IMG/VR virus record: IMGVR_UViG_3300004463_000262
Location: 8,440-72,439 of that record
Direction: 5' to 3' (one strand)
Source of the DNA: a virus
DNA: 64,000 nt
Below the pieces are notes generated by a model. The model was not told the origin of the DNA. It made no database searches and saw nothing but the letters and a program-made list of their open reading frames with translations. The translations under genes were made by a program, and so were the position numbers. The number at the start of each line of letters is the position of its first letter. Positions within the stretch are counted from its first letter, which is position 1. Positions 1-18,977 of the stretch are shown in pieces.

Positions 1-2
1 CG

Positions 3-229: not shown

Positions 230-260
230 ACTCTGTGTTGAGTAACTATTGGAGGTTTGT

Positions 261-476
261 TTGGCTACAGATAGGTTAGAGTTCGAAGGTGAGGTTACCG
301 AGTCACTACCGGGTACCGTATTCCGCGTTAAGCTGGATGAGGGAGTGGAAGTGGTGGCGACGATCTCTGGTAAGATGAGGAAGAACTATATCCGAATTCT
401 TCCGGGTGATCGCGTAAAGGTGGAATTATCGCAATACGATCTCACTAAGGGCCGTGTGACTTATCGTTACCGTTAG
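261..476 (+). CDS. infA: translation initiation factor IF-1
   Basis: [15 protein letters not shown]…[37 protein letters not shown] is the IF-1 signature; TTG start after GGAGG (ORF track starts at 249). Confidence 0.95.
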
Positions 477-482
477 GCACGG

Positions 483-755
483 ATGAAATTTATCGATATA
501 ACAGGTGAAAGATTCGGTCGCTTGACAGTGATCGAGCAAAATGGTAAACTTGGTGATCAGATCGCTTGGAGATGTAAATGCGATTGCGGGAATTTTACCA
601 CAGTAAGATCGTCCTCGCTTCGTACTGGTAAGACAACATCTTGTGGTTGTTTCGCCAAGGACATTAGAAGTTTGTATGGTGCGATGAAGTATGGTAAAAC
701 GAATGTTCATCCTAATTCGATGGCCGCAAAGAAATTAAGGCTTCGGACACTATAA
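483..755 (+). CDS. N-terminal domain typical of AP2/HNH homing endonucleases (no nuclease domain)
   Basis: DITGERFGRLTV…WRCKCDCG…LRTGKTTSCGC motif. Confidence 0.7.
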   Translation: MKFIDITGERFGRLTVIEQNGKLGDQIAWRCKCDCGNFTTVRSSSLRTGKTTSCGCFAKDIRSLYGAMKYGKTNVHPNSMAAKKLRLRTL

Positions 756-789
756 AATGTTCGAGTTGAAGAACTAATCTATACAAGAC

Positions 790-818
790 TTGACAAGTCC
801 TGAGAAGTTTGTTACACT
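790..818 (+). promoter_or_regulatory. sigma70-type promoter for tRNA-Arg
   Basis: TTGACA-17-TACACT, 6 nt before the tRNA. Confidence 0.75.
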
Positions 819-824
819 AGATAA

Positions 825-896
825 GTCCCTGTAGTTCAGCGGAAGAACAACGGTCTTCTAAACCGTATGTCGGGAGTTCGATTCTCTCCAGGGATG
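825..896 (+). tRNA. tRNA-Arg(TCT)
   Basis: Cloverleaf; acggt-cttctaa-accgt; GTTCGATTC T loop. Confidence 0.9.
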
Positions 897-955
897 CTAG
901 AAGGTAAAGGCGGTTCGACTCCGTTGTAAGATTTCGGTAAACCCCTTCGAGTCAC

Positions 956-984
956 TTGACAGAAAGATCGTCAGGTGGTATGAT
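956..984 (+). promoter_or_regulatory. sigma70-type promoter
   Basis: TTGACA-17-TATGAT preceding a non-coding structured region. Confidence 0.7.
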
Positions 985-1184
985 GTACAAGTACGACAAG
1001 TAAGGCCAGCGCGGGAACTGGTATCCCGTGTGATCTTAGGGGATGGGACTTGAGGATACCTCAAAGAAGCCCTCTAAGTGATCGGAGTCAGAACCAAGCC
1101 TTTGGGGCAAGGGGGAGACGAGCCTTCACTTTACAATAGGGAAACCTATTGTCGAGAATTGGTTGTAATAACGCTATGCCATGT

Positions 1185-1258
1185 TTGAATGTAGCTCAGT
1201 CAGGGAGAGTGCGCGGCTGCAAACCGCGAGGTCGCAGGTTCAAATCCTGTCGTTCGAT
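1185..1258 (+). tRNA. tRNA-Cys(GCA)
   Basis: cgcgg-ctgcaaa-ccgcg; T arm GTTCAAATC. Confidence 0.8.
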
Positions 1259-1401
1259 TGGGAGACTCATAATCTTCTAGTTGCGTTCGAAGCAATGACA
1301 CCGGGAACGTCTTAATCTCTACACTAAATAGGGATGATTAGCGAGGTCTGGTCGAGTGGTTGATCGTAGGTATTGCGTGATTAGAGCCAAGGCTCATAAA
1401 T

Positions 1402-1475
1402 GGGGATATAGTGCTAATTTGGGAACACGCTAGGTTTGCACCCTGGTATTCCGGGTTCGAGTCCCGGTGTCTCCA
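1402..1475 (+). tRNA. tRNA-Ala(TGC)
   Basis: GGGG start with G3:U70; ctagg-tttgcac-cctgg. Confidence 0.9.
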
Positions 1476-1801
1476 CTAGCAGAAAGTACGGTAACGGCAG
1501 CCAGTCGGTTAGTGTGCGTGGCCGGATCTTGTGTAGAAGTGTCGCTCTCAAATTGTGCTTCTACTAAGCGGACTAACATTCTTTCTGCTTAAATCCGCAA
1601 CTGCTGTGCCGGTCACCCCGGCGAAGAGGGGATAGTCCCTGTCCGGCAGTTGCGATAATGGTTGCGGTTTGGCCACCGTCGTGTCCGGCGATTAGTACAT
1701 AGGAGCCGTCCTACGAAAATGGATCGGGGCAATGTACAAATATTGATCCCCTCACAGAGATTACCAGCGGTGATGGTTGGGGGCAAGAAAGATCTCATCA
1801 T

Positions 1802-1874
1802 AGGCGAGTAGCTCAGAGGGACGAGCGTCCGGTTTACACCCGGAAGGTCGTGGGTTCGACCCCCACCTTGCCTA
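1802..1874 (+). tRNA. tRNA-Val(TAC)
   Basis: tccgg-tttacac-ccgga. Confidence 0.9.
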
Positions 1875-2142
1875 CTACGGTAAGCCCAACCTCCCACGTC
1901 AGGGTGAGGGCCGGATTTCGTCCCTAGCGGCGAGTTAGGGGTTGCGTGCCGGTATAGTATCTAGGAGTGACGCCTTAGAGTTGTTGGGTAACCGATTTTG
2001 CTCCACCCTCCACGGGTAGTGGCTCGACTATAAGCGAGAGACTTATGGCGTAGCGTTGGATACGAGAATCCAATATCGAAGCGGGGGTGGGAGATGATCT
2101 TCATTCGCGCAGTTCGATTCGGGAGGGCTTAGCCCTCCCCAT

Positions 2143-2224
2143 GCCCTCTTGGTGGAATTGGTTTACACGGCAGCCTTAGAAGCTGTGCCCGCAAGGGTTG
2201 CGAGTTCGAGTCTCGCAGAGGGTA
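2143..2224 (+). tRNA. tRNA-Leu(TAG)
   Basis: gcagc-cttagaa-gctgt, long variable arm. Confidence 0.9.
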
Positions 2225-2353
2225 CTTTGAGACAACCGGGGCGAATGAGCCTAAGGTAGGCGTATGCCGAGGCGCGACTTATACTGCGAGCAGGATTCTA
2301 ATATCCTGCCCCTAAGTTGTCTCAATTATCGTACTGTTAATGTGTAGGATGCA

Positions 2354-2638
2354 ATGGCACTTTCATACGGAGATAACTTCTATGACAGCGGCCCTTACGG
2401 AGGGTTTTATCTACCTATGGCAACAGAGTCGGTAGTACAGCAACGCGGAGTAGAGTATACTGATACGGCTGATATCCCGAGATGGGCTATCCAGTCGTCT
2501 GGTGCTTCACCCGCTTATCCTGCACAGACACGAACCTACACCGTTCAAACCAGGAATTGGGATCAGATTGCCGATCCTAGTGGCGCTGGCTTTCAAGCTA
2601 CGCTTGCCTCCTGGACACGAACCGAACTACACAATTAA
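2354..2638 (+). CDS. hypothetical protein
   Basis: ATG ORF with upstream AGGA, coding-like composition. Confidence 0.6.
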   Translation: MALSYGDNFYDSGPYGGFYLPMATESVVQQRGVEYTDTADIPRWAIQSSGASPAYPAQTRTYTVQTRNWDQIADPSGAGFQATLASWTRTELHN

Positions 2639-2647
2639 GAGGTTTCA

Positions 2648-3268
2648 ATGGCTGGTAAGAGAAAGTTTGACGACAAAGCAACGTGGCGCAATGATCAGTG
2701 GGGAATTGATCAGGATCAGCCTGCACGTGCAGAGAAGATTTTTGATCCTGCTGACACTGTGACTGATGATCCTACTGCCGGTGGTATTGGTGGAGGTACA
2801 TCCTTCTCTAGAAGTCCGGTTCAGATGACTGGTACGATGTATACCGGCCTGAATGATAATCCTACCGCAATGGTGGATCAAGCGTATCGTCTTGGTGACA
2901 CGCTTCTAGGAAACACCTACGCCTCTCTAACAACTGATTTAACCGGTGATGACAATGATCTTGTTTTCACTGCTAATGCTAGAGGCTCAGGTGGCAATGC
3001 GATCACCGTAGAGTATGTTGATCCGGCTGACACAGATCAGTCATTAGACGTGAGTGTTACAGATCTTGCTATCGTGGTAAGTCTTGCTACGGATAGTGGT
3101 GGTATCATTACTACTGTGGCTGATGATATTTCTGCTGCGATTGGTTTGGACACAGAGGCGAATGCTCTTGTCTCTGTAGAAGATGCTGCTAGCAATGATG
3201 GTTCTGGCCTCGTTACAGCGATGGATGAGACGAATTTGTCTGGTGGATCTGACGCTCATTACGCATAA
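2648..3268 (+). CDS. probable virion structural protein (acidic, Thr/Gly-rich)
   Basis: C-terminal DLVFTA…GNAITVEY…TNLSGG segment of a type seen in phage structural proteins; GAGG RBS. Confidence 0.55.
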   Translation: MAGKRKFDDKATWRNDQWGIDQDQPARAEKIFDPADTVTDDPTAGGIGGGTSFSRSPVQMTGTMYTGLNDNPTAMVDQAYRLGDTLLGNTYASLTTDLTGDDNDLVFTANARGSGGNAITVEYVDPADTDQSLDVSVTDLAIVVSLATDSGGIITTVADDISAAIGLDTEANALVSVEDAASNDGSGLVTAMDETNLSGGSDAHYA

Positions 3269-3272
3269 ATAC

Positions 3273-3301
3273 TTGACATAGCCCTCCCTTTTTGATATAA
3301 T
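3273..3301 (+). promoter_or_regulatory. consensus sigma70 promoter
   Basis: TTGACA-17-TATAAT. Confidence 0.85.
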
Positions 3302-3337
3302 ACCTGTACAAGGTAATCAAGGAAAGGATTAGGGATC

Positions 3338-3688
3338 ATGGCACTTACAGCAGCGGAGCGCGAAACGGTCATCAGCATCAGCGACGATGAGAACGAGTGG
3401 ACGATCCATACGTCTCAGCGCAAGATGGTCACGCAGCTTCTCAAGAATCCGTCCGCGACGATCCTGGAGGATACGACTTTCCAGGGTACGCGCATGCTGG
3501 TCGCGACGGTTCCTGCCAACGGTATTACCGTCCGCAAGGGCAAGGGTACGCCTCGTAAGGTAGCTGGTCGTGCCCCTCGTAACATCGATGCCCCGACGTG
3601 CGGCGGTGTCAAGTCTGATGGTAGTAAGTGTGGTATGGTCGCCAAGAACGGTAGTGGGTTTTGCCGTCACCATCAGGATCAGAAGTAA
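3338..3688 (+). CDS. hypothetical protein with C-terminal C3H zinc finger
   Basis: TCGGVKSDGSKC…FCRHH. Confidence 0.7.
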   Translation: MALTAAERETVISISDDENEWTIHTSQRKMVTQLLKNPSATILEDTTFQGTRMLVATVPANGITVRKGKGTPRKVAGRAPRNIDAPTCGGVKSDGSKCGMVAKNGSGFCRHHQDQK

Positions 3689-3794
3689 TCACGTTTCTCT
3701 GGAGAGGGCACCGTTCGGTCATATCCTCCAACAATTAAGGGGGTGTGGTTAGTAGCAGGAAGAGGGAGCGGTGCCCTCGCAGGGGAACATTTTA

Positions 3795-3868
3795 GGCTCC
3801 ATAGCTTAGTTTGGTAGAGCAGGGGACTCTTAATCCCAAGGTCGAAGGTTCGAATCCTTCTGGGGTCA
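3795..3868 (+). tRNA. tRNA-Lys(CTT)
   Basis: gggga-ctcttaa-tccca. Confidence 0.9.
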
Positions 3869-3979
3869 TAGGCGGTGCTATCGTTGTTGGTAATCATTCC
3901 ATTGCCCTCGAAGCCGGGGACTTCTGTGATAGCAATTCTAGATCCGCAGGCTTCCTTATTTGTAAACAATCAAGGGGAT

Positions 3980-4351
3980 GTTTTGAAGTTAATCATCGCA
4001 AGTATCTGTGTCTTAATGACACTCTTACTCCCGGATGTATCGAACGCAAACATCGCAACAACAAAGAAAGCAATCATCTGGGCATTTTGTGGTCACTCAT
4101 ACAAGCCGTGTTGGTTAGGACGAGAGGCCATCAAGGTATCGGACTGTGAAACAGGCGGTACCTTTTCTATTTGGGCAGGCGTTGGTAAGCATGACTATTG
4201 GGGTCTTTTCCAAATGGGATCATCAGAAAGAGAGACATGGGGATACGGCAATGATCCCTGGGAACAGGCACGTTCAGCCTATCGCATGTATATGGCGACT
4301 CGTTACGAGGATCGTTCTGATAGATGGAGTCGTTGGGATTGCAAGCCTTAA
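3980..4351 (+). CDS. secreted lysozyme-like (Rpf/SLT-type) transglycosylase
   Basis: Hydrophobic signal-like N-terminus, CETGG, YWGLFQM, W.RWDC motifs; start approximate (track 3875). Confidence 0.65.
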   Translation, partial: VLKLIIASICVLMTLLLPDVSNANIATTKKAIIWAFCGHSYKPCWLGREAIKVSDCETGGTFSIWAGVGKHDYWGLFQMGSSERETWGYGNDPWEQARSAYRMYMATRYEDRSDRWSRWDCKP

Positions 4352-4434
4352 GTCGATATGCTGGAATCTGGTAGACAGGCACGGTTGAGAGCCGTGTGCA
4401 GTAATGCGTCCGAGTTCGACTCTCGGTATCGACA
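4352..4434 (+). tRNA. tRNA-Leu(GAG)
   Basis: cacgg-ttgagag-ccgtg, long variable arm. Confidence 0.9.
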
Positions 4435-4489
4435 TGTTTGACCACCTATAAAGGCAACATCTCATCCTAAATAGGTAGGTGATATACAT

Positions 4490-4606
4490 ATGAGTGCAGC
4501 AGTTTTCATTGTACTAGTACTATTACTAGCTCTATTACTTGGAGTTGGAGTCAATTTCTGGTTCTTCTTGCTTCTTCTGCTCCTACTCCTGCTGTTCTTC
4601 CTTTAA
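4490..4606 (+). CDS. 38-aa Leu-rich membrane peptide (below ORF-track cutoff)
   Basis: AGGTAGGTG RBS then MSAAVFIVLVLLLALLLGVGVNFWFFL…FFL*. Confidence 0.6.
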   Translation: MSAAVFIVLVLLLALLLGVGVNFWFFLLLLLLLLLFFL

Positions 4607-4693
4607 GAACAGTTCGATCCTCTGTGGAGGCGCGATGACAGTCGGGAAAGACCGGCACCCCGTATAAGCCCGAGGGTACATATCGGGCACCAT

Positions 4694-4765
4694 TCCACTG
4701 TAGCTCAGCGGTAGAGCGGTTGGTTGAAGCCCAGCGCGTCGGCGGTTCGATTCCGTCCGGTGGAA
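4694..4765 (+). tRNA. tRNA-Phe(GAA)
   Basis: gttgg-ttgaagc-ccagc. Confidence 0.88.
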
Positions 4766-5102
4766 CCTAGAGCGAGAGGTTACAACCCTAGGATGCTTAG
4801 GGGACGACAGTCGTTGAGCATCAAACGTTCTGTTAATATGCTTGCTCTTATTTTTGTAGTCAAAGACCCTTGGAAACTCGTGCTGGAGACTTTTCTCTTA
4901 TCAGGGATTGCATACGAGGCAGAGCAAAGTTCAAGGCGAGACGAAATGGGCGCCGAAGCGCCCAGATTTTGTAATCGAAGACCCTAGAAACTCTTTGGTT
5001 CTTGTGGAGAGAGAGTTTAGTCTCAGTGAAGCATCCTAAGGAGCAAGTCTAGGCGAGATGAAATTGCGGTCAAACAGTATACTATCGGCCGCAAGATTTT
5101 AC

Positions 5103-5177
5103 GTCCCGTTGGTCTAGTTGGTTTAGGACGCGGCCCTCTCACGGCTGAGGTCATCGGTTCGAATCCGATACGGGATA
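5103..5177 (+). tRNA. tRNA-Glu(CTC)
   Basis: cggcc-ctctcac-ggctg. Confidence 0.9.
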
Positions 5178-5179
5178 CT

Positions 5180-5504
5180 ATGGCTTACAAAGATCCAGAA
5201 AAACAGAAAGTTGCTCAACGTGAATGGTATGAGCGGAATGATATTTGCAGAAAGCGACGTGAACGTAAGAAAAGCATCCAGCGATTCTTACGTGCAGTTA
5301 AAGTAACTGCTGGGTGTCGAGATTGTGGATATGATGCGCATGCAGTGGCATTAGACTTTGATCATCGAGATGATGAAGAGAAGAAGTTCTTTTCGATCTT
5401 CTGAATTAGGTGCTCATGGTTGGAAAGCTATTGTCGAAGAAGTCATGAAATGCGATGTTCGATGCGCAAATTGTCATCGCGTTAGACATTCCGATGTCGT
5501 CTAA
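5180..5504 (+). pseudogene. frameshifted HNH endonuclease
   Basis: MAYKD…CRDCG…LDFDH stops at 5404; another frame continues ELGAHGWK…KCDVRCANCHRVRH to TAA 5504 inside tRNA-Asn. Confidence 0.75.
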
Positions 5505-5560
5505 TGGTAAGGCGCGTGGCTGTTAACCACGCTATCAAGGTTCGAATCCTTGCGTCGGAG
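5490..5560 (+). tRNA. tRNA-Asn(GTT)
   Basis: cgtgg-ctgttaa-ccacg. Confidence 0.9.
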
Positions 5561-5931
5561 CTACACAATACGATTGGGCCGACACAATCGTGCCATATGT
5601 GGTGTAATGATCGGCAATTGTATGAATACAATCATGAGGATAACACTAATGTAAATGCTATTTCAGCATTAGGGGTTAAATGATTGGGGAGTGTGTGTAC
5701 CGAAGAGGAAGCTGCTAGAGGCCGGAAACGACTAGCAGGGATCAAGTCCGATGACCAGTCAGCTTGATGAATCCCCTGTGACAAGCGAAAGCCGTAGCCG
5801 AGGCCAATCTTTCGACTGTAGTTAACACATGGATTAAATCACACTTTATTGTGAAGTTTGTTATATTTTAAGCTTTAGGGGATGCGCATCTTACACGCAT
5901 ATATTTGGTTAGTTACCCAAGAACAGCGTAG

Positions 5932-6021
5932 AGTTGGGAACGGATTCTTGGTGAAATAGATAAATGTGAACTTCTTTGTGCCAATTGCCATCGCAAGGAA
6001 GAAATTAAGGAAATATGCTAG
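5932..6021 (+). pseudogene. C-terminal remnant of HNH endonuclease
   Basis: SWERILGEIDKCELLCANCHRKEE…*, in-frame stop just upstream, stop lies within tRNA-Ser. Confidence 0.7.
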
Positions 6022-6095
6022 AGTGGCTGAATAGGCTCGCCTGCTAAGCGAGTGTGTCTTAACCGGCACCGAAGGTTCGAATCCTTCTATTTCCG
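6009..6095 (+). tRNA. tRNA-Ser(GCT)
   Basis: ctcgc-ctgctaa-gcgag, long variable arm. Confidence 0.9.
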
Positions 6096-6098
6096 TAT

Positions 6099-6143
6099 GG
6101 TTAGGGTCGAGAGGCCGCGTGAGTTCGAATCTCACACTAACCG
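6099..6143 (+). ncRNA. mini tRNA-like RNA (acceptor + variable arm + T arm only)
   Basis: ggttag/ctaacc stem, gtcgagaggc hairpin, gtgag-ttcgaat-ctcac T arm. Confidence 0.5.
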
Positions 6144-6265
6144 TAGTCGGTTGAAGCCTAGGTTCGCCGTGGGATAAGACTGATGAACGAAGGAATCGCA
6201 GCACGAGGTCGTGCCCCGGCTTTACGGGAGGCTATGGTATCCGATCCCATAGGTGATTCTAACTA

Positions 6266-6347
6266 GGAATGTGTCCGGGTGGTGAGGACGCTGCCTTGAA
6301 AGCAGTCGCGTCGAGAGGCGTTGCAGGTTCGAATCCTGTGCATTCCG
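6266..6347 (+). tRNA. tRNA-Ser(TGA)
   Basis: gctgc-cttgaaa-gcagt, long variable arm. Confidence 0.85.
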
Positions 6348-6349
6348 TA

Positions 6350-6425
6350 CCCGTGCGTATGAGGTTCAAGTCCTCATCATCAGGATATCCTAGGCTGATG
6401 TAGCTTAACTGGCAGAGCGAGCGGG
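6350..6425 (+). ncRNA. circularly permuted tRNA-like RNA (YrlA/Y-RNA topology)
   Basis: Order cccgt - T arm - catcag loop ctgatg - D arm - gcggg. Confidence 0.6.
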
Positions 6426-6532
6426 CGTTATTTGTAGGGCAATGGATAGCGGGCCGGACTAGTTGACTCGCTACTCCATCCCTACTGCGCACACATCAAA
6501 TCCCGAATGATCCCCTCCGTAATCATTGGAAG

Positions 6533-6850
6533 GTGATTACAATGGTAGATAGATCGCAGGGAGAACCGGGTAAGCCCGGACAACCGGCTGTCGGCCCGAC
6601 CGGTGGTAGGGGCGGCGAAGGTGGTCGTGGTGGCGAAGGAACAGAGATTGGCGGTGCTGGTGGTGTCGGCGGCGAAGGTGGCGCTGTCTATGTCAGAGAT
6701 TCAGTCGAAGACATTAGACAGAGACTAGCTGAAGCTGGTTCTCAGATCCGAAAGCATGCTGATGCTGCACAGTCTGAGCTAGACGCACTCAAACTTGTTG
6801 TTGAAGAGATTGACGCAAGAGTCAAGGTTCTAGAAGATCTACAGATTTAG
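6533..6850 (+). CDS. Gly-rich repeat plus coiled-coil protein
   Basis: GEPGKPGQP / GGxGGx repeats then heptad-like C-terminus. Confidence 0.7.
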   Translation: MITMVDRSQGEPGKPGQPAVGPTGGRGGEGGRGGEGTEIGGAGGVGGEGGAVYVRDSVEDIRQRLAEAGSQIRKHADAAQSELDALKLVVEEIDARVKVLEDLQI

Positions 6851-6935: not shown

Positions 6936-7019
6936 TAACGAGTGTAATCCGTAGAGTCGGCTGTGGAGGTCATGGCCCACGGGCGCAGGAGAGGTTCATT
7001 ACCTAACACTCGTATTCTT

Positions 7020-12148: not shown

Positions 12149-12559
12149 CTGTCGCGGACACGCCGCGCAATCGAAGGTGCGTGTTATAATCAGCCCATTA
12201 AATCCTGGTTGAATGGCCAGTGGGTGTAGGAACGGTGTAACCTACTAAATCCTCCGCTGAAATGCGGGCGCTAGAGAGGTTCTTCGAGCCATTGACCTAG
12301 CGTGTGGTGGAAGCCGTACCTGCCGGATCGGCCATTGCCGGTTCGGGTGAGCCAGGTGGAGGCACGTCTAGTCAACGTGTCGAAAGCGTAGGGCAGCGCG
12401 GCGGTTGCTGGTGGTCGAGGGCGCAGCAACGTATTGACTAAATGGCCTGTCTGTTCGGAGCAGCGGGTACCAGCAGGGGTATGGTGTCAAAACCTGCCCC
12501 TGCTCTAGAGCGACGAGACATTGTTCAGTTACTCCTGATAGATTATCGTCGCTCATCTT

Positions 12560-12630
12560 TCCAAGGTACACTAATGGTAGGTGACGAGACTCTGAATCTC
12601 GTGGTGTTGGTTCGACCCCAGCCCTTGGAG
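12560..12630 (+). tRNA. tRNA-Gln(CTG)
   Basis: cgaga-ctctgaa-tctcg. Confidence 0.85.
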
Positions 12631-12808
12631 CTAAGGCACATGGTAGGTACTCTTGGCCTTTAGGAGTAATAAGCCTGCCAACTATGCTCCCTGCGCACCG
12701 CCCAATTTACAGGCGGGAGGTGGGGGAGCGCCACTCCCCGGAGGCGATCACTTCAAATCTGGGGAGCCAAGGCCAGGGTGCGATCACTTGTCAATCTCTG
12801 GTCGCCAA

Positions 12809-12891
12809 GGGAGTATTACCTAAGTGGACAACAGGTTCCGGCTGTAACCCGGATGCTTCTAGCTTCGGAGGTTCGAATCCTTCTGCTCCCA
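12809..12891 (+). tRNA. tRNA-Tyr(GTA)
   Basis: tccgg-ctgtaac-ccgga, long variable arm. Confidence 0.9.
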
Positions 12892-12957
12892 TCGTCACAC
12901 AGCGGCACCAAGGCCATGCTCGCGAGCAAGCCAAGTGATCGTAACGTGTGACACCTT

Positions 12958-13029
12958 TCCGGGATCGTCTAATGGTAGTGACCTTGGACTTTGAATCCAA
13001 TGATCTAGGTTCGAATCCTAGTCCCGGAG
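12958..13029 (+). tRNA. tRNA-Gln(TTG)
   Basis: ttgga-ctttgaa-tccaa. Confidence 0.9.
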
Positions 13030-13180
13030 CTATGGACTATCCGGTTCATATCACCCTAAATCTTGCAAGTGTGATATGAGTAGTCGATCTGTCGTATTTC
13101 CATGGTTACGCGGCAGGGAGTGTGGGTTCGATTCCCTAAACCGCCATAGTGCGGGGACTGGCGAGATAGTTCCAGATTTT

Positions 13181-13253
13181 GGCCCGTTAGTTCAGCGGTT
13201 AGAGCGCCTGCCTGTCGAGCAGGATGTCACCAGTTCGAATCTGGTACGGGTCG
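13181..13253 (+). tRNA. tRNA-Asp(GTC)
   Basis: cctgc-ctgtcga-gcagg. Confidence 0.88.
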
Positions 13254-13348
13254 TATGGTGCGCTAGGGGGAGTACTACCCCTAGCAGGGAGGTAGCTCGA
13301 AAGAGAGAGTTCATTCGCCGTGGTGAAGGGCGGGATGACAACAACATT

Positions 13349-13423
13349 GGAGTGGTAGTTCAATTCGGTTAGAGCACTGCCCTGTCACGGCAGAAGTTGC
13401 GGGTTCGAGTCCCGTCCATTCCG
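13349..13423 (+). tRNA. tRNA-Asp(GTC), second copy
   Basis: ctgcc-ctgtcac-ggcag. Confidence 0.9.
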
Positions 13424-13641
13424 TAGTCATAGCCCTGCACGCCACGAGGGGTAGATAGTGAGTCTGGTCGGACTCCCGTTTGAGGGTAGATACAGGCTTT
13501 AAACAGTTAGGTACCATCGCGAGTAACGGCTTTCGTTCTATGACTCAGGAGAGGGATTGCAGAGGCACGGTATATGCCCCTTCTAGGACTTCACCGTGAG
13601 TAATACGCCTGGGTTTGGCGCAAGACAGATTCAGGCTCCAT

Positions 13642-13715
13642 ATCAGAGTCGTCTAATGGTCAAGGACTTCAGACTTTCAATCTGAACAATGCGGGTTCGA
13701 CTCCCGTCTCTGATA
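13642..13715 (+). tRNA. tRNA-Glu(TTC)
   Basis: tcaga-ctttcaa-tctga. Confidence 0.88.
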
Positions 13716-13718
13716 CTA

Positions 13719-13792
13719 CAGGAGTTAGCATAATTGGTTAATGCCCCAGACTGTGAATCTGGACGATTTGGGTTCGAATCCCCTGCTCCTGA
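13719..13792 (+). tRNA. tRNA-His(GTG)
   Basis: ccaga-ctgtgaa-tctgg; no encoded G-1. Confidence 0.75.
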
Positions 13793-13795
13793 TAC

Positions 13796-13870
13796 CCTTT
13801 GGTAGCTCAATGGCAGAGCACTGCGCTGTAAGGAACGCAGAGGTTGCGAGTTCGATTCTCGTCCTTAGGT
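13796..13870 (+). tRNA. tRNA-like gene with 10-nt anticodon loop (identity undetermined)
   Basis: ctgcg-ctgtaaggaa-cgcag; canonical D and T arms; two U:U acceptor mismatches. Confidence 0.55.
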
Positions 13871-13874
13871 CTTC

Positions 13875-13946
13875 GCCGAAATAGCTCAGCGGTAGAGCAC
13901 CTGTTTTGTAAGCAGGGTGTCCAGAGTTCGATTCTCTGTTTCGGCT
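13875..13946 (+). tRNA. tRNA-Thr(TGT)
   Basis: cctgt-tttgtaa-gcagg. Confidence 0.9.
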
Positions 13947-14050
13947 TACGCCAGTGGATCAAGTAGATAGCACGAAGCCTTATCTTCGAGTAGATCCTCC
14001 TAAGAATAATCAGTCCAGTAAAATACGTTGGGCTAAAGATTACGAGCTTC

Positions 14051-14123
14051 GCCTGCTTGGTGCTAACGGATAGCATACTGCTTTGGTATAGCAGGGGAGA
14101 CAGTTCGATTCTGTCAGTGGGCT
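14051..14123 (+). tRNA. tRNA-Thr(GGT)
   Basis: ctgct-ttggtat-agcag. Confidence 0.8.
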
Positions 14124-14242
14124 TATGGAAGGGGTCTTGGGTTCGAATCCCAAAGTTAGCTTTGCGCTTATCAGACGTAGCAGACGCCGCACGGATAGCG
14201 TAACCGTGTCCTGATCGTGGGTCAGGTTATCTCCCACGCCAC

Positions 14243-14314
14243 GCTAATCAGGTGTTTCAGGTGGCACACGTCTTTCGTAAGGACGGAGACAGAGTTCGAT
14301 TCTCTGGATTAGCT
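14243..14314 (+). tRNA. tRNA-Thr(CGT)
   Basis: cgtct-ttcgtaa-ggacg. Confidence 0.82.
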
Positions 14315-14317
14315 TAC

Positions 14318-14390
14318 AGACTCATAGCTCAGATGGGAGAGCGCTTCCTTGACGTGGAAGAGGTCACAGGTTCGATCCCTGTTGGGTCTA
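14318..14390 (+). tRNA. tRNA-Val(GAC)
   Basis: cttcc-ttgacgt-ggaag. Confidence 0.9.
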
Positions 14391-14473
14391 TTGGGTAAGA
14401 CTACAGAGCCGTGTGCAGCACGGTAAGGCAGCTAGCACTTGTCTTCCCACCATTTTATGGTATACTGTACTCA

Positions 14474-14731
14474 ATGTGTGAGAAGAGAGAGAAGTTGATC
14501 AAGGAGATTGCCGAGGCAATCAAGCAGGCCGACCTTGAGATGGAACGTCGTCAAGATCTGTTCCATCAAGATTGGGATTGGCAGTTTGAGCAGAGAGCCG
14601 AAGCCGCATTACGTGTAATCGAGCGCAAGGCTGACGTAACTCAAGATAGGATTCTTCCTTGCACTTGTGGTCATAATGGATATGGAGCACATAAAGAAGG
14701 GTGCGCGTTATATGAACAAAGCAGACTATGA
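14474..14731 (+). CDS. hypothetical protein with C-terminal CxCxH…H..C motif
   Basis: ATG 7 nt after TATACT; track ORF starts 14411. Confidence 0.6.
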   Translation: MCEKREKLIKEIAEAIKQADLEMERRQDLFHQDWDWQFEQRAEAALRVIERKADVTQDRILPCTCGHNGYGAHKEGCALYEQSRL

Positions 14732-15089
14732 ATATAAAGCCGGTTATGCTTGTGGTTTTTGGGCCGACGAATTGATCGAAGCGAAAAGGAGAGGATATTC
14801 TTCTTTTCATTATAATCCTGATACTCTTCGGGGAGATCCTAAGTTTGAAATGGGTCGTGCAGATGGCATCGGGGATCGTGAACTAGTTGATGTAGAAAAT
14901 GATGACTCCTTTTTCTTCGCTTTTGATCAGAGCGGTTTTCCGTGGGGGAGCCATATAGAACAGGAGTTCAAAAGGCGAGGATATGAGTTTGAATACCTAG
15001 ATATTTACGGCAAAGTCATCAAAGAACGTCCCGCTCCTATAAAATCCTTATTGCAGTCTTATCGTCTCGTCAAACCAAAGCAGGTATAG
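14712..15089 (+). CDS. RMF-like motif protein
   Basis: YKAGYACG…FEMGRADGIGD. Confidence 0.6.
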   Translation: MNKADYEYKAGYACGFWADELIEAKRRGYSSFHYNPDTLRGDPKFEMGRADGIGDRELVDVENDDSFFFAFDQSGFPWGSHIEQEFKRRGYEFEYLDIYGKVIKERPAPIKSLLQSYRLVKPKQV

Positions 15090-15173
15090 TGGCGGCAATC
15101 GTATTTCCGCAAACCTCGTATATTACCTCCGGGGCACGTAGGGATCAGGGAAGTGGGTTGACCTACAAACTAA

Positions 15174-15247
15174 GCAATAGTAGCTCAGACTGGTAGAGCG
15201 TCACCTTGCCAAGGTGAAAGTCGAGGGTTCGAGTCCTTCTTTGTCTG
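15174..15247 (+). pseudogene. tRNA-Gly(GCC) with replaced 3' acceptor strand
   Basis: Intact D, anticodon (tcacc-ttgccaa-ggtga) and T arms, but the 3' strand does not pair with gcaatag. Confidence 0.7.
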
Positions 15248-15272
15248 GGACTCCTACCTCGTAATAACTGAG

Positions 15273-15638
15273 ATGGCATACAAAGACAAAGAGAAGCAGA
15301 GAGAAGCATCCCTCGCCTCTTATCATCGTAGAAGAAAGAGTGATATAGAGAGAATGAGGCTCGTTAAGAATGAAGCAAAGAAGCGTAGGCGCAAAGAGAA
15401 TTCTGAGTACGTCAACGCTCTGAAAGCGCAACCTTGTGTGGATTGTGGGAATTGTTATCTACCATGTGTGATGGATTTTGATCATGTTCGTGGTGAGAAA
15501 ACTAAGAACATCGCTTTCATGTTAATCAACGATACTTCTCTCGAAAAAATTAAAGAGGAAATTGAGAAGTGCGAATTGGTATGCTCAAATTGTCATCGAA
15601 TTCGCACGCATCAGCGCAGATATAGTGCCAATGGTTAG
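15273..15638 (+). CDS. HNH endonuclease
   Basis: MAYKD…CVDCG…MDFDH…CELVCSNCHR. Confidence 0.85.
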   Translation: MAYKDKEKQREASLASYHRRRKSDIERMRLVKNEAKKRRRKENSEYVNALKAQPCVDCGNCYLPCVMDFDHVRGEKTKNIAFMLINDTSLEKIKEEIEKCELVCSNCHRIRTHQRRYSANG

Positions 15639-15688
15639 CATACCAGATTGCCATTCTGGTGGTACGAGTTCGAATCTCGTTATCTGCT
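15616..15688 (+). tRNA. tRNA-Gly(GCC)
   Basis: ccaga-ttgccat-tctgg, U73. Confidence 0.85.
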
Positions 15689-15786
15689 TGAAGACTATTG
15701 ATAGAGACTAGAAACTCTAGGGTGCAAGTCCCTGGCTCTCCCATAGCTCTGTGTAGGTTATGGGTACACAGTGATAGTCTTCTCCA

Positions 15787-15859
15787 GCACCTATGATGTT
15801 AATGGTTAGCATCTCAGACTTCCAATCTGATCGTGTCGGTTCGAGTCCGACTAGGTGCT
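15787..15859 (+). tRNA. tRNA-Gly(TCC)
   Basis: tcaga-cttccaa-tctga. Confidence 0.9.
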
Positions 15860-15865
15860 CTGAAC

Positions 15866-15938
15866 GTCCTAGTAGCTCAGTGGATAGAGTGCCACCCTGC
15901 GAAGGTGGAAGTCGTTGGTTCGAGTCCAACTTAGGACG
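15866..15938 (+). tRNA. tRNA-Arg(GCG)
   Basis: ccacc-ctgcgaa-ggtgg; A20 in D loop. Confidence 0.85.
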
Positions 15939-16354
15939 CTAGAACAGGGACATACGCAGCACCCGTTGATCCATGCGTCGTGGGTAACTCCCCGGCCGAA
16001 AATTGGGCGTCTTCACGGCGCAGAGATGAGCGGGTGTTGAGGAACTTCAGGACTACTGAACCGCGTGGTGCCAAGAGAGCGCGGGGAGCGTTTAGACGAT
16101 GAGGGAGATGGCCGGTTAGCCGGTAATGCCCGTAATGATGTGTAGGGCTGATAGCGTGAGCGGGAGCCATCGCGTACCTCTAAGCGGACGATATGTAGCG
16201 ATTCCAAGTTCGTCCTGAGCACACAGGACAAGGTAGGGAGCAGCCACTTTATCGAGACGGGTGGCCATTGGTCGAAAGCCCTTCAACGGACGTGAGGGTA
16301 GAGGGCTGAAAACCCCACGCTGACCAGTGAGATAGATGTATGTCATCTTGTTAC

Positions 16355-16383
16355 TTGACAAGACACAGAATCCTGGGTATACT
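16355..16383 (+). promoter_or_regulatory. sigma70-type promoter
   Basis: TTGACA-17-TATACT. Confidence 0.75.
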
Positions 16384-16398
16384 GTTCTAGATACACAA

Positions 16399-16471
16399 AC
16401 CTCCGTAGCTCAGCGGTCAGAGCGCTGGCCTCATAAGCCAGATGTCGTCGGTTCGAATCCAACCGGAGGGA
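16399..16471 (+). tRNA. tRNA(CAT), Met or Ile2
   Basis: ctggc-ctcataa-gccag. Confidence 0.8.
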
Positions 16472-16473
16472 AT

Positions 16474-16692
16474 ATGAATCAAATTGATAAGAACAAAGTC
16501 GTAGAGGTTCCGCTTAGTTCTAAGTACCTTACTCATGATGGATTGTATATGGCAGGCTATCATTGGGGTCGGCATATTAGAAGTCCAGAAAGCGCCCCTA
16601 GTGGTGCGCCGGTAGCCTTTCTTCAAGGTGTTCGGGATGGATATGGAGACGGCTTGGAAGAAATCCGAGAAAGGATGAGATCAGGAACATGA
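16474..16692 (+). CDS. RMF-like motif protein
   Basis: YMAGYHWG…AFLQGVRDGYGD; GGAGG supplied by the tRNA 3' end. Confidence 0.6.
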   Translation: MNQIDKNKVVEVPLSSKYLTHDGLYMAGYHWGRHIRSPESAPSGAPVAFLQGVRDGYGDGLEEIRERMRSGT

Positions 16693-16892
16693 AGAAGATA
16701 GATCAGAAAGCCGAAAAGGCTGAGCGTAACAAGATCTACGCGCTCAAGTTCAAGAAGAAGGAAAAGGAGAAGAAGGGCAAGCGCGAGGTTTCTCGTTTCG
16801 CCAATTGGTGCAGAACCGAGGGTCATGATCCTAGTTGTAGTTGCGCCTATCCTTCTCGCGAAGAAGTCATTGAGGCTTCACGCAGAAAGTAA
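16689..16892 (+). CDS. small basic hypothetical protein
   Basis: ATGA overlap; Lys-rich with C/H cluster. Confidence 0.55.
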   Translation: MKKIDQKAEKAERNKIYALKFKKKEKEKKGKREVSRFANWCRTEGHDPSCSCAYPSREEVIEASRRK

Positions 16893-16965
16893 TTCCCTGT
16901 AGCTCAGTGGAAAGAGCATCTGTTTCCTAAACAGAGTGTCGGAGGTTCGATTCCTCTCAGGGAAG
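16893..16965 (+). tRNA. tRNA-Arg(CCT)
   Basis: tctgt-ttcctaa-acaga. Confidence 0.88.
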
Positions 16966-16966
16966 T

Positions 16967-17212
16967 ATGAAAAGAAAGCTTAAGTGTGGTACTTGTGGTA
17001 CCACCAAAAATAAAGCAACAGGCAAAACGCTCTACATGTTTGGTGACTCGCCTGCATCTATGATGATCCTCCCTGATTCTATCGAGTGTTGGGATTGTGG
17101 TGAGGCTCGTCGTGAGGCAGAAGAAAAGAAAAAGCAGGAGCGCAACAAGAGCCTGGTTGATAAGTTCGCTGTCGAAAGCGATAAACTAGCACGCGGAGTA
17201 GAGCACTGGTAG
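16967..17212 (+). CDS. zinc-ribbon hypothetical protein
   Basis: CGTC…CWDC; stop inside the following tRNA. Confidence 0.55.
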   Translation: MKRKLKCGTCGTTKNKATGKTLYMFGDSPASMMILPDSIECWDCGEARREAEEKKKQERNKSLVDKFAVESDKLARGVEHW

Positions 17213-17263
17213 CTCGTCAGCCTCATAAGCTGAAGGTAGCTGGTTCAATTCCAGCCTCCGCTA
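17192..17263 (+). tRNA. tRNA-Met(CAT), initiator-like
   Basis: CGCGGAGTAGAGCA start, C1 mismatch, tcagc-ctcataa-gctga. Confidence 0.85.
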
Positions 17264-17282
17264 TAGAGTAAAGTGAAGGTTC

Positions 17283-17315
17283 AAGCCCGTGGCGTTCTTG
17301 CGCCACGGGCTTTTT
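17283..17315 (+). terminator. intrinsic terminator ending the tRNA array (overlaps a TTGCGC-17-TATAAT promoter)
   Basis: aagcccgtggcg-ttcttg-cgccacgggctt followed by T run. Confidence 0.8.
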
Positions 17316-17332
17316 CGTGCTATAATAAACTG

Positions 17333-17614
17333 ATGGAGCTACATCATAGGAAAGCTAGAGAGATCTGGCGGGAGATGAGACTAGAGAATGGTATAGATCC
17401 TGATTCAGTCACTTCTAGTGATCCAGGACACCCCAAGTGGTCTACAATTAAGTACATCGGGGGATATTATCATGGTTTAGTGGGTCTTTATATTCCCCCT
17501 GATCGTCGTAACGATTCTAATAATGCCAAGGGAACTTTTGGCACGACTGAGGATGAGTGGGATATGGGTTATTGGGACGCTCAAGGAGATTTAGAAAATG
17601 GCAAATATAACTAA
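17333..17614 (+). CDS. RMF-like motif protein
   Basis: YIGGYYHG…WDMGYWDAQGD; leaderless ATG. Confidence 0.6.
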   Translation: MELHHRKAREIWREMRLENGIDPDSVTSSDPGHPKWSTIKYIGGYYHGLVGLYIPPDRRNDSNNAKGTFGTTEDEWDMGYWDAQGDLENGKYN

Positions 17615-18977
17615 GGATTTGAAGGTTTTTAGCCCGCAGGGTGTGGGTATTGATCAGGGCGCGGTTGAGCAGATTGAACGCTGCCTAGAGCATCCTAACG
17701 CCGTTGCCGGTGCATTGATGGCTGACCATCATCTAGGCTATTCTATGCCTATTGGTGGTGTTGTCGCCTACGAGGATGCTATTTCTCCTACAGGAGTAGG
17801 ATTCGATATCGCCTGTGGGAACATGGCGGTCAAGACTGATCTGAATATCTCTAGTTTCGGTTCTGAGTCTGCCAAGAGTGGGGACATCGTTCCTAATCCT
17901 AAGGTATTCAAGGGACTGATGCGTGAAATCCAGCGCCAGGTATCTTTCGGTATTGGTCGTTCTAACGCGAATCCTATTGATCATCCTCTCTTCGACAATC
18001 CTGTTTGGGTTGAGATTGATAACCAGTTTGGTCGTGAGCTAGAGGCTAAGGCTCGCAACCAGTTGGGTACCGTGGGTTCTGGTAATCACTATGTGGATAT
18101 TCTCGTTGACGAGAAGGGTGCTCTCTGGATTGCTAACCACTTTGGCTCTCGTGGTCTAGGTCATACTATCGCTTCTGGCTTTATGGCTGCTGCCGCTGGT
18201 AGGAAGTTCACGGATCGCGTTCCTGAGTCCGAGGATGCAGTAGTTCTTACTAAGAATGACCCTCTAATCTACGAGTTCTACATCGAGGCTATGCAGCTAG
18301 CTGGCGAGTACGCTTATGCTGGTCGTGAGTACGTCATCGATCAGGTTCTTAAGATCCTCGGTGCTGAAGCTGTTTGGTCAGTCCACAATCATCACAACTA
18401 CGCTTGGCTGGAAGATGGCAAGTGGGTAGTTCGCAAGGGTGCCACTCCGCTAACGAATTCTCCTGCATTTATTGGAGGTTCTATGGGTGATATCTCCGTG
18501 ATTGTTCGTGGTCGAACGGCTGGTGGCGAAATGTTGCGCTGGACTCGCACGGAAGATGTTGGCGCATTGGGTTCTGCGCCTCATGGTGCTGGTCGTATCA
18601 TGAGCCGCACAAAGGCCGCTGGTAAGTTACGCAAGATGTGGGTATGTCCTAATCGTAACTGTGGTAAGTTTGAGGAAAGAGCAGTAGCAAATACGCCTGC
18701 TTCTGCTGGTTCTCGCTGCCCGGATTGCAACATCGTTTTGCGCAAGGTTCGCAAGCGCGATACCTCTGATGCTGCTATCGATTGGACTGCAACCCGTCAG
18801 GATCTAAAGGATCGTGGGATCATTGTTCTGGGTGCTGGTGCTGATGAGGCACCGGGAGTCTATAAGCCTCTCGCTGAGGTTATCGAAGCACATCCTAACA
18901 TCGAAATCCTACATACTCTTCGTCCGCTTGGTGTGGTAATGGCAGGTGCGGATGAATTTGACCCTTATGCTGATTGA
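17598..18977 (+). CDS. rtcB: RtcB RNA ligase with zinc-ribbon insertion
   Basis: MADHHLGYSMPIGG, VGFDIACG, LGTVGSGNHY, HNHHN, VRKGATP, HGAGRIMSR. Confidence 0.93.
   Translation: MANITKDLKVFSPQGVGIDQGAVEQIERCLEHPNAVAGALMADHHLGYSMPIGGVVAYEDAISPTGVGFDIACGNMAVKTDLNISSFGSESAKSGDIVPNPKVFKGLMREIQRQVSFGIGRSNANPIDHPLFDNPVWVEIDNQFGRELEAKARNQLGTVGSGNHYVDILVDEKGALWIANHFGSRGLGHTIASGFMAAAAGRKFTDRVPESEDAVVLTKNDPLIYEFYIEAMQLAGEYAYAGREYVIDQVLKILGAEAVWSVHNHHNYAWLEDGKWVVRKGATPLTNSPAFIGGSMGDISVIVRGRTAGGEMLRWTRTEDVGALGSAPHGAGRIMSRTKAAGKLRKMWVCPNRNCGKFEERAVANTPASAGSRCPDCNIVLRKVRKRDTSDAAIDWTATRQDLKDRGIIVLGAGADEAPGVYKPLAEVIEAHPNIEILHTLRPLGVVMAGADEFDPYAD

Follow-up and report, generated by a model that had tools for sequence, protein, structure and literature searches.

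We analyzed a 64,000-nt stretch of virus DNA (the window), positions 8440 to 72439 of the 72,439-base linear virus record G000 (G000:C1; IMGVR_UViG_3300004463_000262), which CheckV estimates to be about 45% complete. Our subject is the block at window positions 249 to 18977, in which a long array of transfer RNA (tRNA) genes is interspersed with genes for initiation factor IF-1, ribosomal protein uS12, a transfer-messenger RNA (tmRNA), an RtcB-family ligase, and a copy of part of 23S rRNA. Downstream of the tRNA block, library matches identified genes for ribonucleotide reductase (RNR), DnaC-like and DnaB-like proteins, primase, and DNA polymerase, as well as for a UvsX-like recombinase, terminase, portal protein, thymidylate synthase, and thymidine kinase. 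Since replication, terminase, and portal genes lie there, the window derives from a phage. No close GenBank phage was found, as megablast of window positions 1 to 20000 gave just one 63-nt tRNA-Gly match. Two sequencing runs, with 95% and 60% of the words sampled from window positions 8800 to 12000, carry the label rhizosphere metagenome. The source is a large uncultured soil phage with a genome of about 160 kb, going by its complete relative G001, a syntenic 158-kb viral record whose core proteins are 41 to 85% identical to those of the window. A further relative, identified by its portal protein, is G016, which is 93% complete. The following features carry the argument.

201 to 229, plus strand, sigma-70-like promoter, TTGACA-17-TATCAT with TG (11/12 consensus match; called on consensus match alone)
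261 to 476, plus strand, infA, IF-1, 71 amino acids (aa) from TTG 261 in an open reading frame (ORF) open from 249 (Pfam, NCBIfam)
8894 to 9201, plus strand, ssrA, tmRNA with tag ANAIKSVSAWLRGSVRQPALVAA (ARAGORN; Rfam RF00023)
9408 to 9800, plus strand, rpsL, uS12, 130 aa, TTG start (Pfam, NCBIfam, alignments, trees)
11319 to 11554, plus strand, RNA copy of the 23S GTPase-associated center (Rfam large-subunit rRNA [LSU] model; family comparison; homolog in G001)
17598 to 18977, plus strand, RtcB-family RNA ligase, 459 aa (Pfam; motif alignment)

Translation proteins and RNAs of the block

A preliminary description of this DNA had named IF-1, S12, tmRNA, RtcB, about 43 tRNAs for all 20 amino acids, and a mimic of a 23S rRNA fragment, and all of these identifications were borne out by library searches. 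The ORF at 249 to 476 scored 88.6 bits against Pfam PF01176 (cut-off, 30.2) and 110 bits against the infA equivalog model TIGR00008 (cut-off, 61.15), with residues 8 to 74 aligned to profile positions 3 to 69 of 69. Its start is likely TTG 261, which has GGAGG upstream at 251 to 255, and a protein database also lists the 71-aa IF-1 product expected from this start. The promoter-like site at 201 to 229 lies just 5′ of the gene. IF-1 is already known from large phages: the window protein matches phrog_30201 and 36 GenBank phage records, Lak megaphages included, and IF1 is named among huge-phage genes in the part of that literature cited here (PMC7162821).

At the other end of the block, the RtcB protein scored 193.5 bits against Pfam PF01139 (cut-off, 27), and its motifs align to those of the solved Pyrococcus horikoshii RtcB, the HGAGR histidine stretch included. 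Two CxxC pairs lie in a stretch of about 55 additional residues. Because the NCBIfam equivalog cut-off was missed (94.7 versus 407), we assign the protein to the family and not to a named equivalog. The tmRNA matched RF00023 over its full length (model positions 1 to 374) at 114.4 bits, against a cut-off of 47, and was also called by ARAGORN, which reads the tag given above; a homolog is present in G001. For uS12, the scores were 110.2 bits with Pfam (cut-off, 22.3) and 173.5 bits with TIGR00981, the rpsL_bact equivalog model (cut-off, 112.95), and the protein matched solved bacterial uS12 chains at 1.7e-42.

ARAGORN called 45 genes within 825 to 17263, all on the plus strand: the tmRNA and 44 tRNAs. 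For 43 of these tRNAs an amino acid was assigned, with all 20 represented; one is undetermined. Rfam matches, counted at gathering score, numbered 43 and comprised 41 of the 44 ARAGORN tRNAs and two extra, weaker ones (11129 to 11198 and 15174 to 15245); the ARAGORN tRNAs at 4352 to 4434, 10275 to 10358, and 14243 to 14314 are absent from the Rfam list at that score. The assigned tRNAs are as follows.

Arg(TCT) 825 to 897, Cys(GCA) 1185 to 1258, Ala(TGC) 1402 to 1476, Val(TAC) 1802 to 1875, Leu(TAG) 2143 to 2225, plus strand (ARAGORN, Rfam)
Lys(CTT) 3795 to 3868, Leu(GAG) 4352 to 4434, Phe(GAA) 4694 to 4767, Glu(CTC) 5103 to 5178, plus strand (ARAGORN)
Asn(GTT) 5490 to 5561, Ser(GCT) 6009 to 6095, Ser(TGA) 6266 to 6347, Ser(GGA) 6850 to 6935, Ser(CGA) 7019 to 7102, plus strand (ARAGORN, Rfam)
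Trp(CCA) 7556 to 7626, Ile(TAT) 7725 to 7800, plus strand (ARAGORN, Rfam; just 30.6 bits in Rfam for Ile(TAT))
Ile(GAT) 8347 to 8420, Ser(GGA) 8448 to 8535, plus strand (ARAGORN, Rfam)
Cys(GCA) 10065 to 10136, Leu(TAA) 10275 to 10358, Leu(CAA) 10468 to 10543, Lys(TTT) 10666 to 10739, plus strand (ARAGORN)
Arg(TCG) 11211 to 11285, plus strand (ARAGORN, Rfam)
Pro(TGG) 11823 to 11899, Pro(GGG) 11995 to 12069, Pro(CGG) 12073 to 12149, plus strand (ARAGORN, Rfam)
Gln(CTG) 12560 to 12631, Tyr(GTA) 12809 to 12891, Gln(TTG) 12958 to 13030, Asp(GTC) 13180 to 13254, plus strand (ARAGORN, Rfam)
Asp(GTC) 13348 to 13424, Glu(TTC) 13642 to 13716, His(GTG) 13719 to 13792, plus strand (ARAGORN, Rfam)
Thr(TGT) 13875 to 13946, Thr(GGT) 14051 to 14123, Thr(CGT) 14243 to 14314, Val(GAC) 14318 to 14390, plus strand (ARAGORN)
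Gly(GCC) 15616 to 15688, Gly(TCC) 15787 to 15860, Arg(GCG) 15866 to 15939, plus strand (ARAGORN, Rfam)
Met(CAT) 16399 to 16471, Arg(CCT) 16893 to 16965, Met(CAT) 17192 to 17263, plus strand (ARAGORN, Rfam)

This set, with 39 distinct anticodons, can read almost every codon: under strict wobble, 95.8% of the 10,533 codons in 29 long ORFs are readable, and the uncovered codons are GCC and GCT only. A 3′ CCA is encoded in 1 of the 44 tRNA genes, and a CCA-adding enzyme is therefore needed for the other 43. Many of the genes are followed immediately by TA, which may be a common processing signal.

Distribution of the core and the edge segments

The preliminary description had treated IF-1 and S12 as the center of one integrated unit. 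We examined the co-occurrence of infA, rpsL, ssrA, and rtcB, reading gene identities, order, conservation, and distribution directly from the records. IF-1, RtcB, and uS12 were distributed patchily and independently, the pattern that the description itself had named as speaking against it, and an integrated IF-1/S12 unit is therefore not supported. Neither IF-1 nor RtcB was found in any of five uS12-bearing viral records; among five IF-1-bearing viral records, none had uS12 and one had RtcB; and uS12 was absent from all five other records with a 23S copy. The complete genome of G001 has neither IF-1 nor RtcB anywhere. In G016, uS12, IF-1, and RtcB are all absent and tmRNA is present, and tmRNA was found in four of the five records tested (G001, G002, G004, G005, and G016). 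Five other portal relatives (G017 to G021, 3 to 27% complete) are too fragmentary to inform either way. Of 80 metagenome loci found by the uS12 motifs of the clade, many of them short or cellular, none carried IF-1 or RtcB within the 604,347 bases covered.

G001 keeps the tRNA order of the window, the tmRNA, uS12 (66% identity), the 23S copy, a sigma-like ORF, and several ORFs without known function. Two segments of the window are extra DNA relative to it. The first, with IF-1 and an HNH-like ORF, is bordered by an ORF that G001 also has and by tRNA-Arg(TCT); the second, with tRNA-Met, a 113-aa ORF, and RtcB, separates the array from the RNR gene, which in G001 directly follows the tRNA array. 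The IF-1 protein is 70 to 76% identical to ordinary bacterial IF-1 and no phage-specific clade was seen, so it carries no sign of co-adaptation.

Taken together, the comparisons argue that the tRNAs, the tmRNA, a phage-lineage uS12, the 23S-site copy, and the sigma-like factor form an ancestral core shared with G001, and that IF-1 (left edge) and RtcB (right edge) are recent additions. The parts of the block appear to have been gathered one by one and not inherited as one machine, and the distribution indicates that such regions grow piece by piece, at the edges of a tRNA array in which homing endonucleases abound.

A phage lineage of uS12 with proline at the Lys88 position

With residues (K43, K88, and P91) numbered from the start codon, the window uS12 keeps PNSA, Lys43, Asp89, and Pro91 and has Pro at the Lys88 position. 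In the top 20 database relatives (65 to 99% identical), the motif reads GGRVPDLPG, versus GGRVKDLPG in solved bacterial uS12. Of the 120 best database matches, 20 have P here, 90 have K, and 8 have R, with T and E occurring once each. Across the 20 clade members 38 columns do not vary, a sign that the gene is maintained; PNSA, Asp89, His77, and the RSKYG stretch at the C terminus are the same in every member. In the product of the G001 uS12 gene (L004:10001-10399), all three streptomycin/fidelity positions are changed: Lys43 is replaced by Cys, Lys88 by Pro, and Pro91 by Arg. K43, K88, and P91 are the classical streptomycin-resistance positions of Escherichia coli rpsL; according to the cited part of this work, mutants at these positions are often hyper-accurate but slow, and Asp89, beside K88, is modified (PMC12416847).

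The Pro-type relatives formed one split in a first tree (support, 97/82). In a second tree, a quick search on a short alignment with many weak forks, the clade comprised 26 rows (Shimodaira-Hasegawa-like approximate likelihood ratio test [SH-aLRT], 89) and was nested among six Lys-type uS12 of other large viral contigs within an enclosing group of 33 rows (support, 88). Cellular and organelle-like Pro-type uS12 stood apart from the phage clade, with an SH-aLRT of 18 for their own grouping. On other large viral contigs, three Lys-type uS12 genes each have a similar helical ORF of 90 to 118 aa (L005:9766-10038, L006:9729-10022, and L014:9679-10035) directly upstream and overlapping the uS12 start, an arrangement that suggests a two-gene phage cassette; no similarity to these helical ORFs was detectable in the 66-aa ORF upstream of the window gene.

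Outside the phage lineage, Pro at the Lys88 position occurs naturally in bacterial str operons and organelle-like contigs (L067, L088, L106, L113, L132, and L134 to L147). We inspected the neighbors of Pro-type uS12, about 50% identical to the window protein, at 7 of the 34 loci of at least 5 kb. All five zero-tRNA loci examined were str operons with S7 adjoining uS12, four of them also with EF-G and EF-Tu, and both tRNA-rich loci examined looked organellar (cox1-3 in one, S14 in the other). A genome scan found the Pro-type motif at 14 loci, mostly Patescibacteria by their record titles and at most 54% identical. Since Pro at this position is found in cellular str-operon uS12, it is compatible with a working ribosome, and it appears to have arisen more than once. 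The notion that Pro88-type uS12 is widespread in phage tRNA arrays, suggested by tRNAs at 53 of the 80 metagenome loci, was dropped after inspection of the loci. A tblastn search for uS12 among GenBank phages matched 15 of 50,697 records, all at no more than 60.6% identity; we do not count these as phage uS12 because two are Salmonella genome contigs of more than 500 kb and several are unannotated fragments. No PHROGs family exists for the window uS12. Six metagenome loci are 66 to 99% identical to the window gene, all but G001 on contigs of at most 1.6 kb.

We considered whether the main work of the phage uS12 is done off the ribosome, for example in chaperoning the many structured RNAs of the array or in regulation. 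E. coli S12 is said to serve as an RNA chaperone in T4 intron splicing. In the phage lineage the gene always lies among structured RNA genes, with tmRNA or the same tRNA neighbors at five of the six loci just mentioned, and the classical ribosome-function residues are altered, with Pro at Lys88 throughout the clade and Cys43 and Arg91 in G001. Against this, the whole uS12 fold signature is kept and the bacterial equivalog cut-off is passed, the conserved PNSA, Asp89, His77, and RSKYG elements do not vary within the clade, and Pro88 is also found in cellular str-operon uS12, which makes it compatible with ribosomal function. A role chiefly off the ribosome is thus unlikely in our judgment.

A self-closed copy of the 23S GTPase-associated center

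Positions 11330 to 11378 matched Rfam LSU model positions 1096 to 1145, the H43/H44 region, at 20.2 bits (E of 0.014 in a 19-kb search), and the same LSU region was matched in G001 at 21.3 bits. The element proved larger than the fragment first noted. A closing helix, 11319 to 11329 with 11544 to 11554, encloses an H43-like half at about 11330 to 11365, which over about 37 nt departs little from the Rfam LSU consensus, and an H44-like half at 11527 to 11543; a 161-nt insert separates the two. A pattern from the H43-like half matched seven viral contigs of 50 to 371 kb, G001 among them, and because the resulting set of eight was gathered with the 5′ half, independent evidence comes only from the 3′ half and from the closing helix. 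The H44-like half was present in all eight sequences, with inserts of 140 to 211 nt, and in each of them 8 to 10 of the 11 closing-helix positions pair, despite differing sequence. Since both the H44-like half and the pairing flanking strands are found in 8/8, the element is a self-closed copy spanning about 11319 to 11554, and we read it as a complete copy of the uL11-binding GTPase-associated center split by an insert. A full-text literature search for a phage 23S or L11 mimic gave nothing relevant among the matches listed. A promoter-like site at 11549 overlaps the 3′ closing strand.

A stand-alone RNA of the uL11 site thus recurs in unrelated large phages and may point to an unexplored interference with the factor-binding stalk or with stringent signaling.

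Other features of the array and its surroundings

Three tRNA-like genes of the array are noncanonical.

11129 to 11198, plus strand, weak tRNA-like sequence (Rfam 29.4 bits, cut-off 29; no ARAGORN call; poor fold)
13796 to 13871, plus strand, tRNA-shaped gene with an enlarged anticodon loop (four-base "anticodon" in ARAGORN; Rfam 50.8 bits)
15174 to 15245, plus strand, tRNA-Gly(GCC)-like with a poor acceptor stem (Rfam 45.4 bits; no ARAGORN call)

The first is probably a decayed copy of the adjoining tRNA-Arg(TCG). The third, which megablast aligned over 63 nt at 92% identity with a Leptolyngbya phage tRNA-Gly, may like the first be a decayed copy. The earlier suggestion of several tRNA mimics is therefore weak: three unusual genes do exist, but two of them look like decay products. 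The gene at 13796 to 13871 has a homolog in G001 at L004:14211-14287, and a loop of 10 to 11 nt is common to both phages. Substitutions in the G001 version leave the acceptor stem paired, and the 5′ part of the loop resembles the anticodon loop of tRNA-Tyr (GUA).

The remaining ORFs of the block are listed below.

483 to 755, plus strand, HNH-endonuclease-associated domain ORF, 90 aa (phrog_374 at 5e-25; absent from G001)
2354 to 2638, 2648 to 3268, and 3338 to 3688, plus strand, three ORFs kept in G001 at 52 to 65% aa identity, the third with a DUF5763 zinc-finger tail
5180 to 5404 and 5358 to 5504, plus strand, HNH endonuclease gene in two overlapping frames, apparently broken (both phrog_2255 and phrog_3106)
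7238 to 7570, plus strand, HNH homing endonuclease, 110 aa (phrog_3106 at 6e-26)
7822 to 8340, plus strand, sigma-70-family factor-like ORF, 172 aa (Sigma70_r2, 30.4 bits versus 24; TIGR02937 at 4e-9)
9221 to 9421, plus strand, 66-aa ORF overlapping the uS12 start by 14 nt (48% over 48 aa to a G001 ORF immediately 5′ of uS12)
9797 to 9976, plus strand, 59-aa ORF kept in G001 (54% over 56 aa)
10768 to 11220, plus strand, HNH homing endonuclease ORF, 150 aa (phrog_2255 at 1e-25)
15273 to 15638, plus strand, HNH homing endonuclease, 121 aa (phrog_3106 at 7e-28)
17273 to 17614, plus strand, 113-aa ORF overlapping the RtcB start (no G001 counterpart)

PHROGs matches give five HNH-type ORFs in the tRNA array. 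The sigma-like ORF lies inside the array and is 41% identical in G001. Three small ORFs had been described as resembling ribosome modulation factor (RMF), a proposal that did not survive: PF04957 matched none of 23 small ORFs at E of 5 or below, and none of four records in a six-frame search at E of 1 or below, and the candidates, which are small, basic, and rich in Cys, matched PHROGs of HNH endonucleases, which rules them out as RMF. A nucleotidyltransferase had also been noted at 49.8 kb, and no tie of this gene to tRNA was found. The sole support for ORF 49824-50555 as a nucleotidyltransferase is a match to phrog_1614 at 3e-11; as a CCA-adding enzyme it was rejected, with no Pfam, NCBIfam, or PDB match and no PF01743 anywhere in G000.

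Eight plus-strand sites with at least 10/12 sigma-70 consensus matches were found in a promoter scan, versus one on the minus strand, and the block is probably transcribed from several sigma-70-like promoters. Strong matches start at 201, 522, 790, 956, 3273, 11549, and 16355 on the plus strand, six of the seven with a TG extension.

Two intergenic regions are conserved in G001. The element at 12252 to 12430 (about 180 nt) is 74% identical there; of the 50 base pairs predicted by RNAalifold, 8 show compensatory changes between the two phages, and the sequences differ by a hairpin indel of 24 nt located in a loop. It has no Rfam match, and its 22-nt core was found among viral contigs in G001 only. 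It is probably an undescribed structured RNA. The stretch at 5715 to 5805 (also 5562 to 5625) is 82% identical in G001 over 89 nt and has a predicted multi-stem fold; in a pattern search its core matched in G001 only. The motif AGCGAAAGCC recurs in the 5715-5805 and 5562-5625 stretches and in the insert of the 23S copy. Beyond the block, a metallophosphoesterase-like ORF (46019 to 47122) and an AAA-like ORF (50895 to 51974) were unmatched in a comparison that covered 91 kb of G001, and on this basis they are further accessory genes outside the tRNA block.

Discussion

We think it likely that positions 249 to 18977 are a modular translation-supply region, in which lineage-specific edge segments have joined a shared ancestral core and HNH endonuclease genes are scattered. 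The HNH homing-endonuclease genes between the tRNAs plausibly drive the mosaicism. We infer expression, its timing, incorporation into ribosomes, and every functional effect in the scheme that follows. The block would be transcribed early from sigma-70-like promoters. The tRNAs without an encoded CCA would be matured by a CCA-adding enzyme and would sustain translation of phage mRNA when the host pool is unsuited, depleted, or cut by defense nucleases. RtcB would reseal tRNAs or other RNAs cut to 2′,3′-cyclic phosphate and 5′-OH ends, and tmRNA together with host SmpB would free ribosomes stalled on broken mRNAs. IF-1 would add initiation capacity, and uS12 would enter newly made 30S subunits as a variant decoding-center protein. 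Judged by the families concerned, tRNA replacement, RtcB repair, and tmRNA rescue are reasonable expectations.

Several points weigh against this reading. The record is an incomplete 72-kb fragment (about 45%). SmpB (PF01668) was found in none of four records (the G000 fragment, G001, G003, and G004), and given its absence from G000 and G001 the phage tmRNA would depend on host SmpB. A CCA-adding enzyme (PF01743) was likewise not found in the 72-kb G000 record; G001 encodes a PF01743 gene elsewhere in its genome. The codon coverage was computed from simple wobble rules. The promoter scan overall gave 28 sites versus 20.7 ± 4.5 in shuffles, a modest excess. Lastly, uS12 binds the 30S subunit late but stably, so that entry of the phage protein into pre-existing ribosomes is doubtful, and it is not among the ribosomal proteins that the cited part of a survey of virus-encoded ribosomal proteins calls dynamic and easily exchanged (PMC6375957).

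A bolder proposal is that large phages possess an old uS12 lineage of their own, one branch of which has fixed Pro88, with further changes at positions 43 and 91 in G001, and that this protein, made early with a full set of tRNAs, the tmRNA, and the uL11-site RNA, enters new 30S subunits and gives rise to phage-specialized ribosomes, while the RNA copy diverts uL11 or factor contacts. We regard this as a long shot. If it were true, such ribosomes would have altered accuracy and an altered aminoglycoside response, and the RNA copy would pull uL11 or factor contacts from host ribosomes, with blunted RelA signaling as one example of the outcome.

At the other extreme, the block could be codon-usage compensation with passengers, the tRNAs fitting the codon bias of the phage and IF-1, uS12, RtcB, and the RNA mimic being neutral captures via homing endonucleases. 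IF-1 and RtcB are indeed accessory and flanked by HNH-type ORFs or ORFs without known function, and the two decayed tRNA-like copies and the broken HNH gene show ongoing turnover. However, 39 anticodons exceed what correction of codon bias needs, and infA, rpsL, and rtcB are all intact. Moreover, uS12 and the 23S copy have been kept between phages whose core proteins are 41 to 85% identical, and the closing helix covaries in all eight 23S copies from very different contigs. We therefore consider a block of mere passengers improbable.

Very improbable is the original idea that the phage supplies both contact partners, IF-1 and uS12, at the 30S A site for one coordinated rebuild of the decoding center: IF-1 does touch S12 on the 30S subunit, both genes are intact, above equivalog cut-offs, and co-oriented in one block, a promoter-like site and a Shine-Dalgarno sequence of its own precede IF-1, and a decoding-loop residue sets the phage uS12 apart from its bacterial counterparts, but the nearest complete relative has uS12 without IF-1, each was missing from all five viral records with the other, none of the 80 metagenome uS12 loci has IF-1 or RtcB in the DNA covered, the IF-1 is of an ordinary bacterial type that shows neither a phage-specific clade nor co-adaptation, and the two genes lie 9 kb apart, one at the edge of the array and one in its interior. 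The extension of that idea, by which the tRNAs, tmRNA, RtcB, and decoy RNAs belong to the same unit, likewise has very little probability.

Relation to known systems

The modular reading can be set beside several known systems. In phage T4, Pnk and Rnl repair tRNA cut by PrrC; here the ligase is instead of the RtcB type, which works in one step on 3′-phosphate or cyclic-phosphate ends, and the closest relative lacks this ligase. Phage tRNAs evade tRNA-cleaving defenses according to the cited parts of three papers (PMC10264068, PMC11555353, and PMC11464382), and the block resembles such counter-defense sets in combining replacement tRNAs with an RNA-repair ligase, a plausible answer to anticodon nucleases.

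As a whole the block is not new in kind, since translation-gene complements of large phages are already known; what it contributes is new members, of which uS12 and the 23S-site copy are the unusual ones. In the cited part of the work of Al-Shayeb et al. (2020; PMC7162821), huge phages carry IF1, IF3, S1, S4, S21, L7/L12, tmRNA, and tRNA-ligation genes, with none encoding all, and large phages are pictured as intercepting host translation. The claim that our phage supplies replacement and repair parts for translation fits this published picture in general; the part of it that centered on IF-1 and S12 as a unit falls with the patchy distribution. The likeness to those complements lies in content that is patchy between phages, and a difference is size, more than 200 kb there versus about 160 kb here. 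That part of the text names S4, S1, S21, and L7/L12, not uS12, and it makes no mention of an RNA copy of a 23S domain. The copy itself shares with the bacterial 23S GTPase-associated center (top of H42, H43, and H44; the uL11 site) an H43-like half, an H44-like hairpin, and a covarying closing helix, and it differs in standing alone, inside a phage tRNA array, and in being split by a variable insert of 140 to 211 nt.

With the virus-encoded ribosomal proteins surveyed by Mizuno et al. (2019; PMC6375957), the phage rpsL shares the character of a bona fide gene seemingly under constraint. The terms "S12" and "uS12" occur zero times in the main text of that survey, whose figures or supplements could list uS12, and the part cited stresses the exchangeable bS21 and bL12; uS12 is by comparison a core protein of the decoding center. 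The phage uS12 would thus be a virus-encoded core decoding-center protein, unlike the peripheral, exchangeable ones reported so far. Its change falls where bacterial mutations alter accuracy and the streptomycin response, and the lineage makes the question of specialized ribosomes directly testable with one gene. A further parallel is with the streptomycin/fidelity alleles of rpsL, as the phage lineage differs at exactly Lys88, and G001 also at Lys43 and Pro91. Pro at position 88 is not among the alleles in the cited part of PMC12416847 and occurs naturally in Patescibacteria and in organelle-like uS12. The rpsL alleles are laboratory mutations, whereas the states of the phage uS12 are natural and fixed in a gene lineage.

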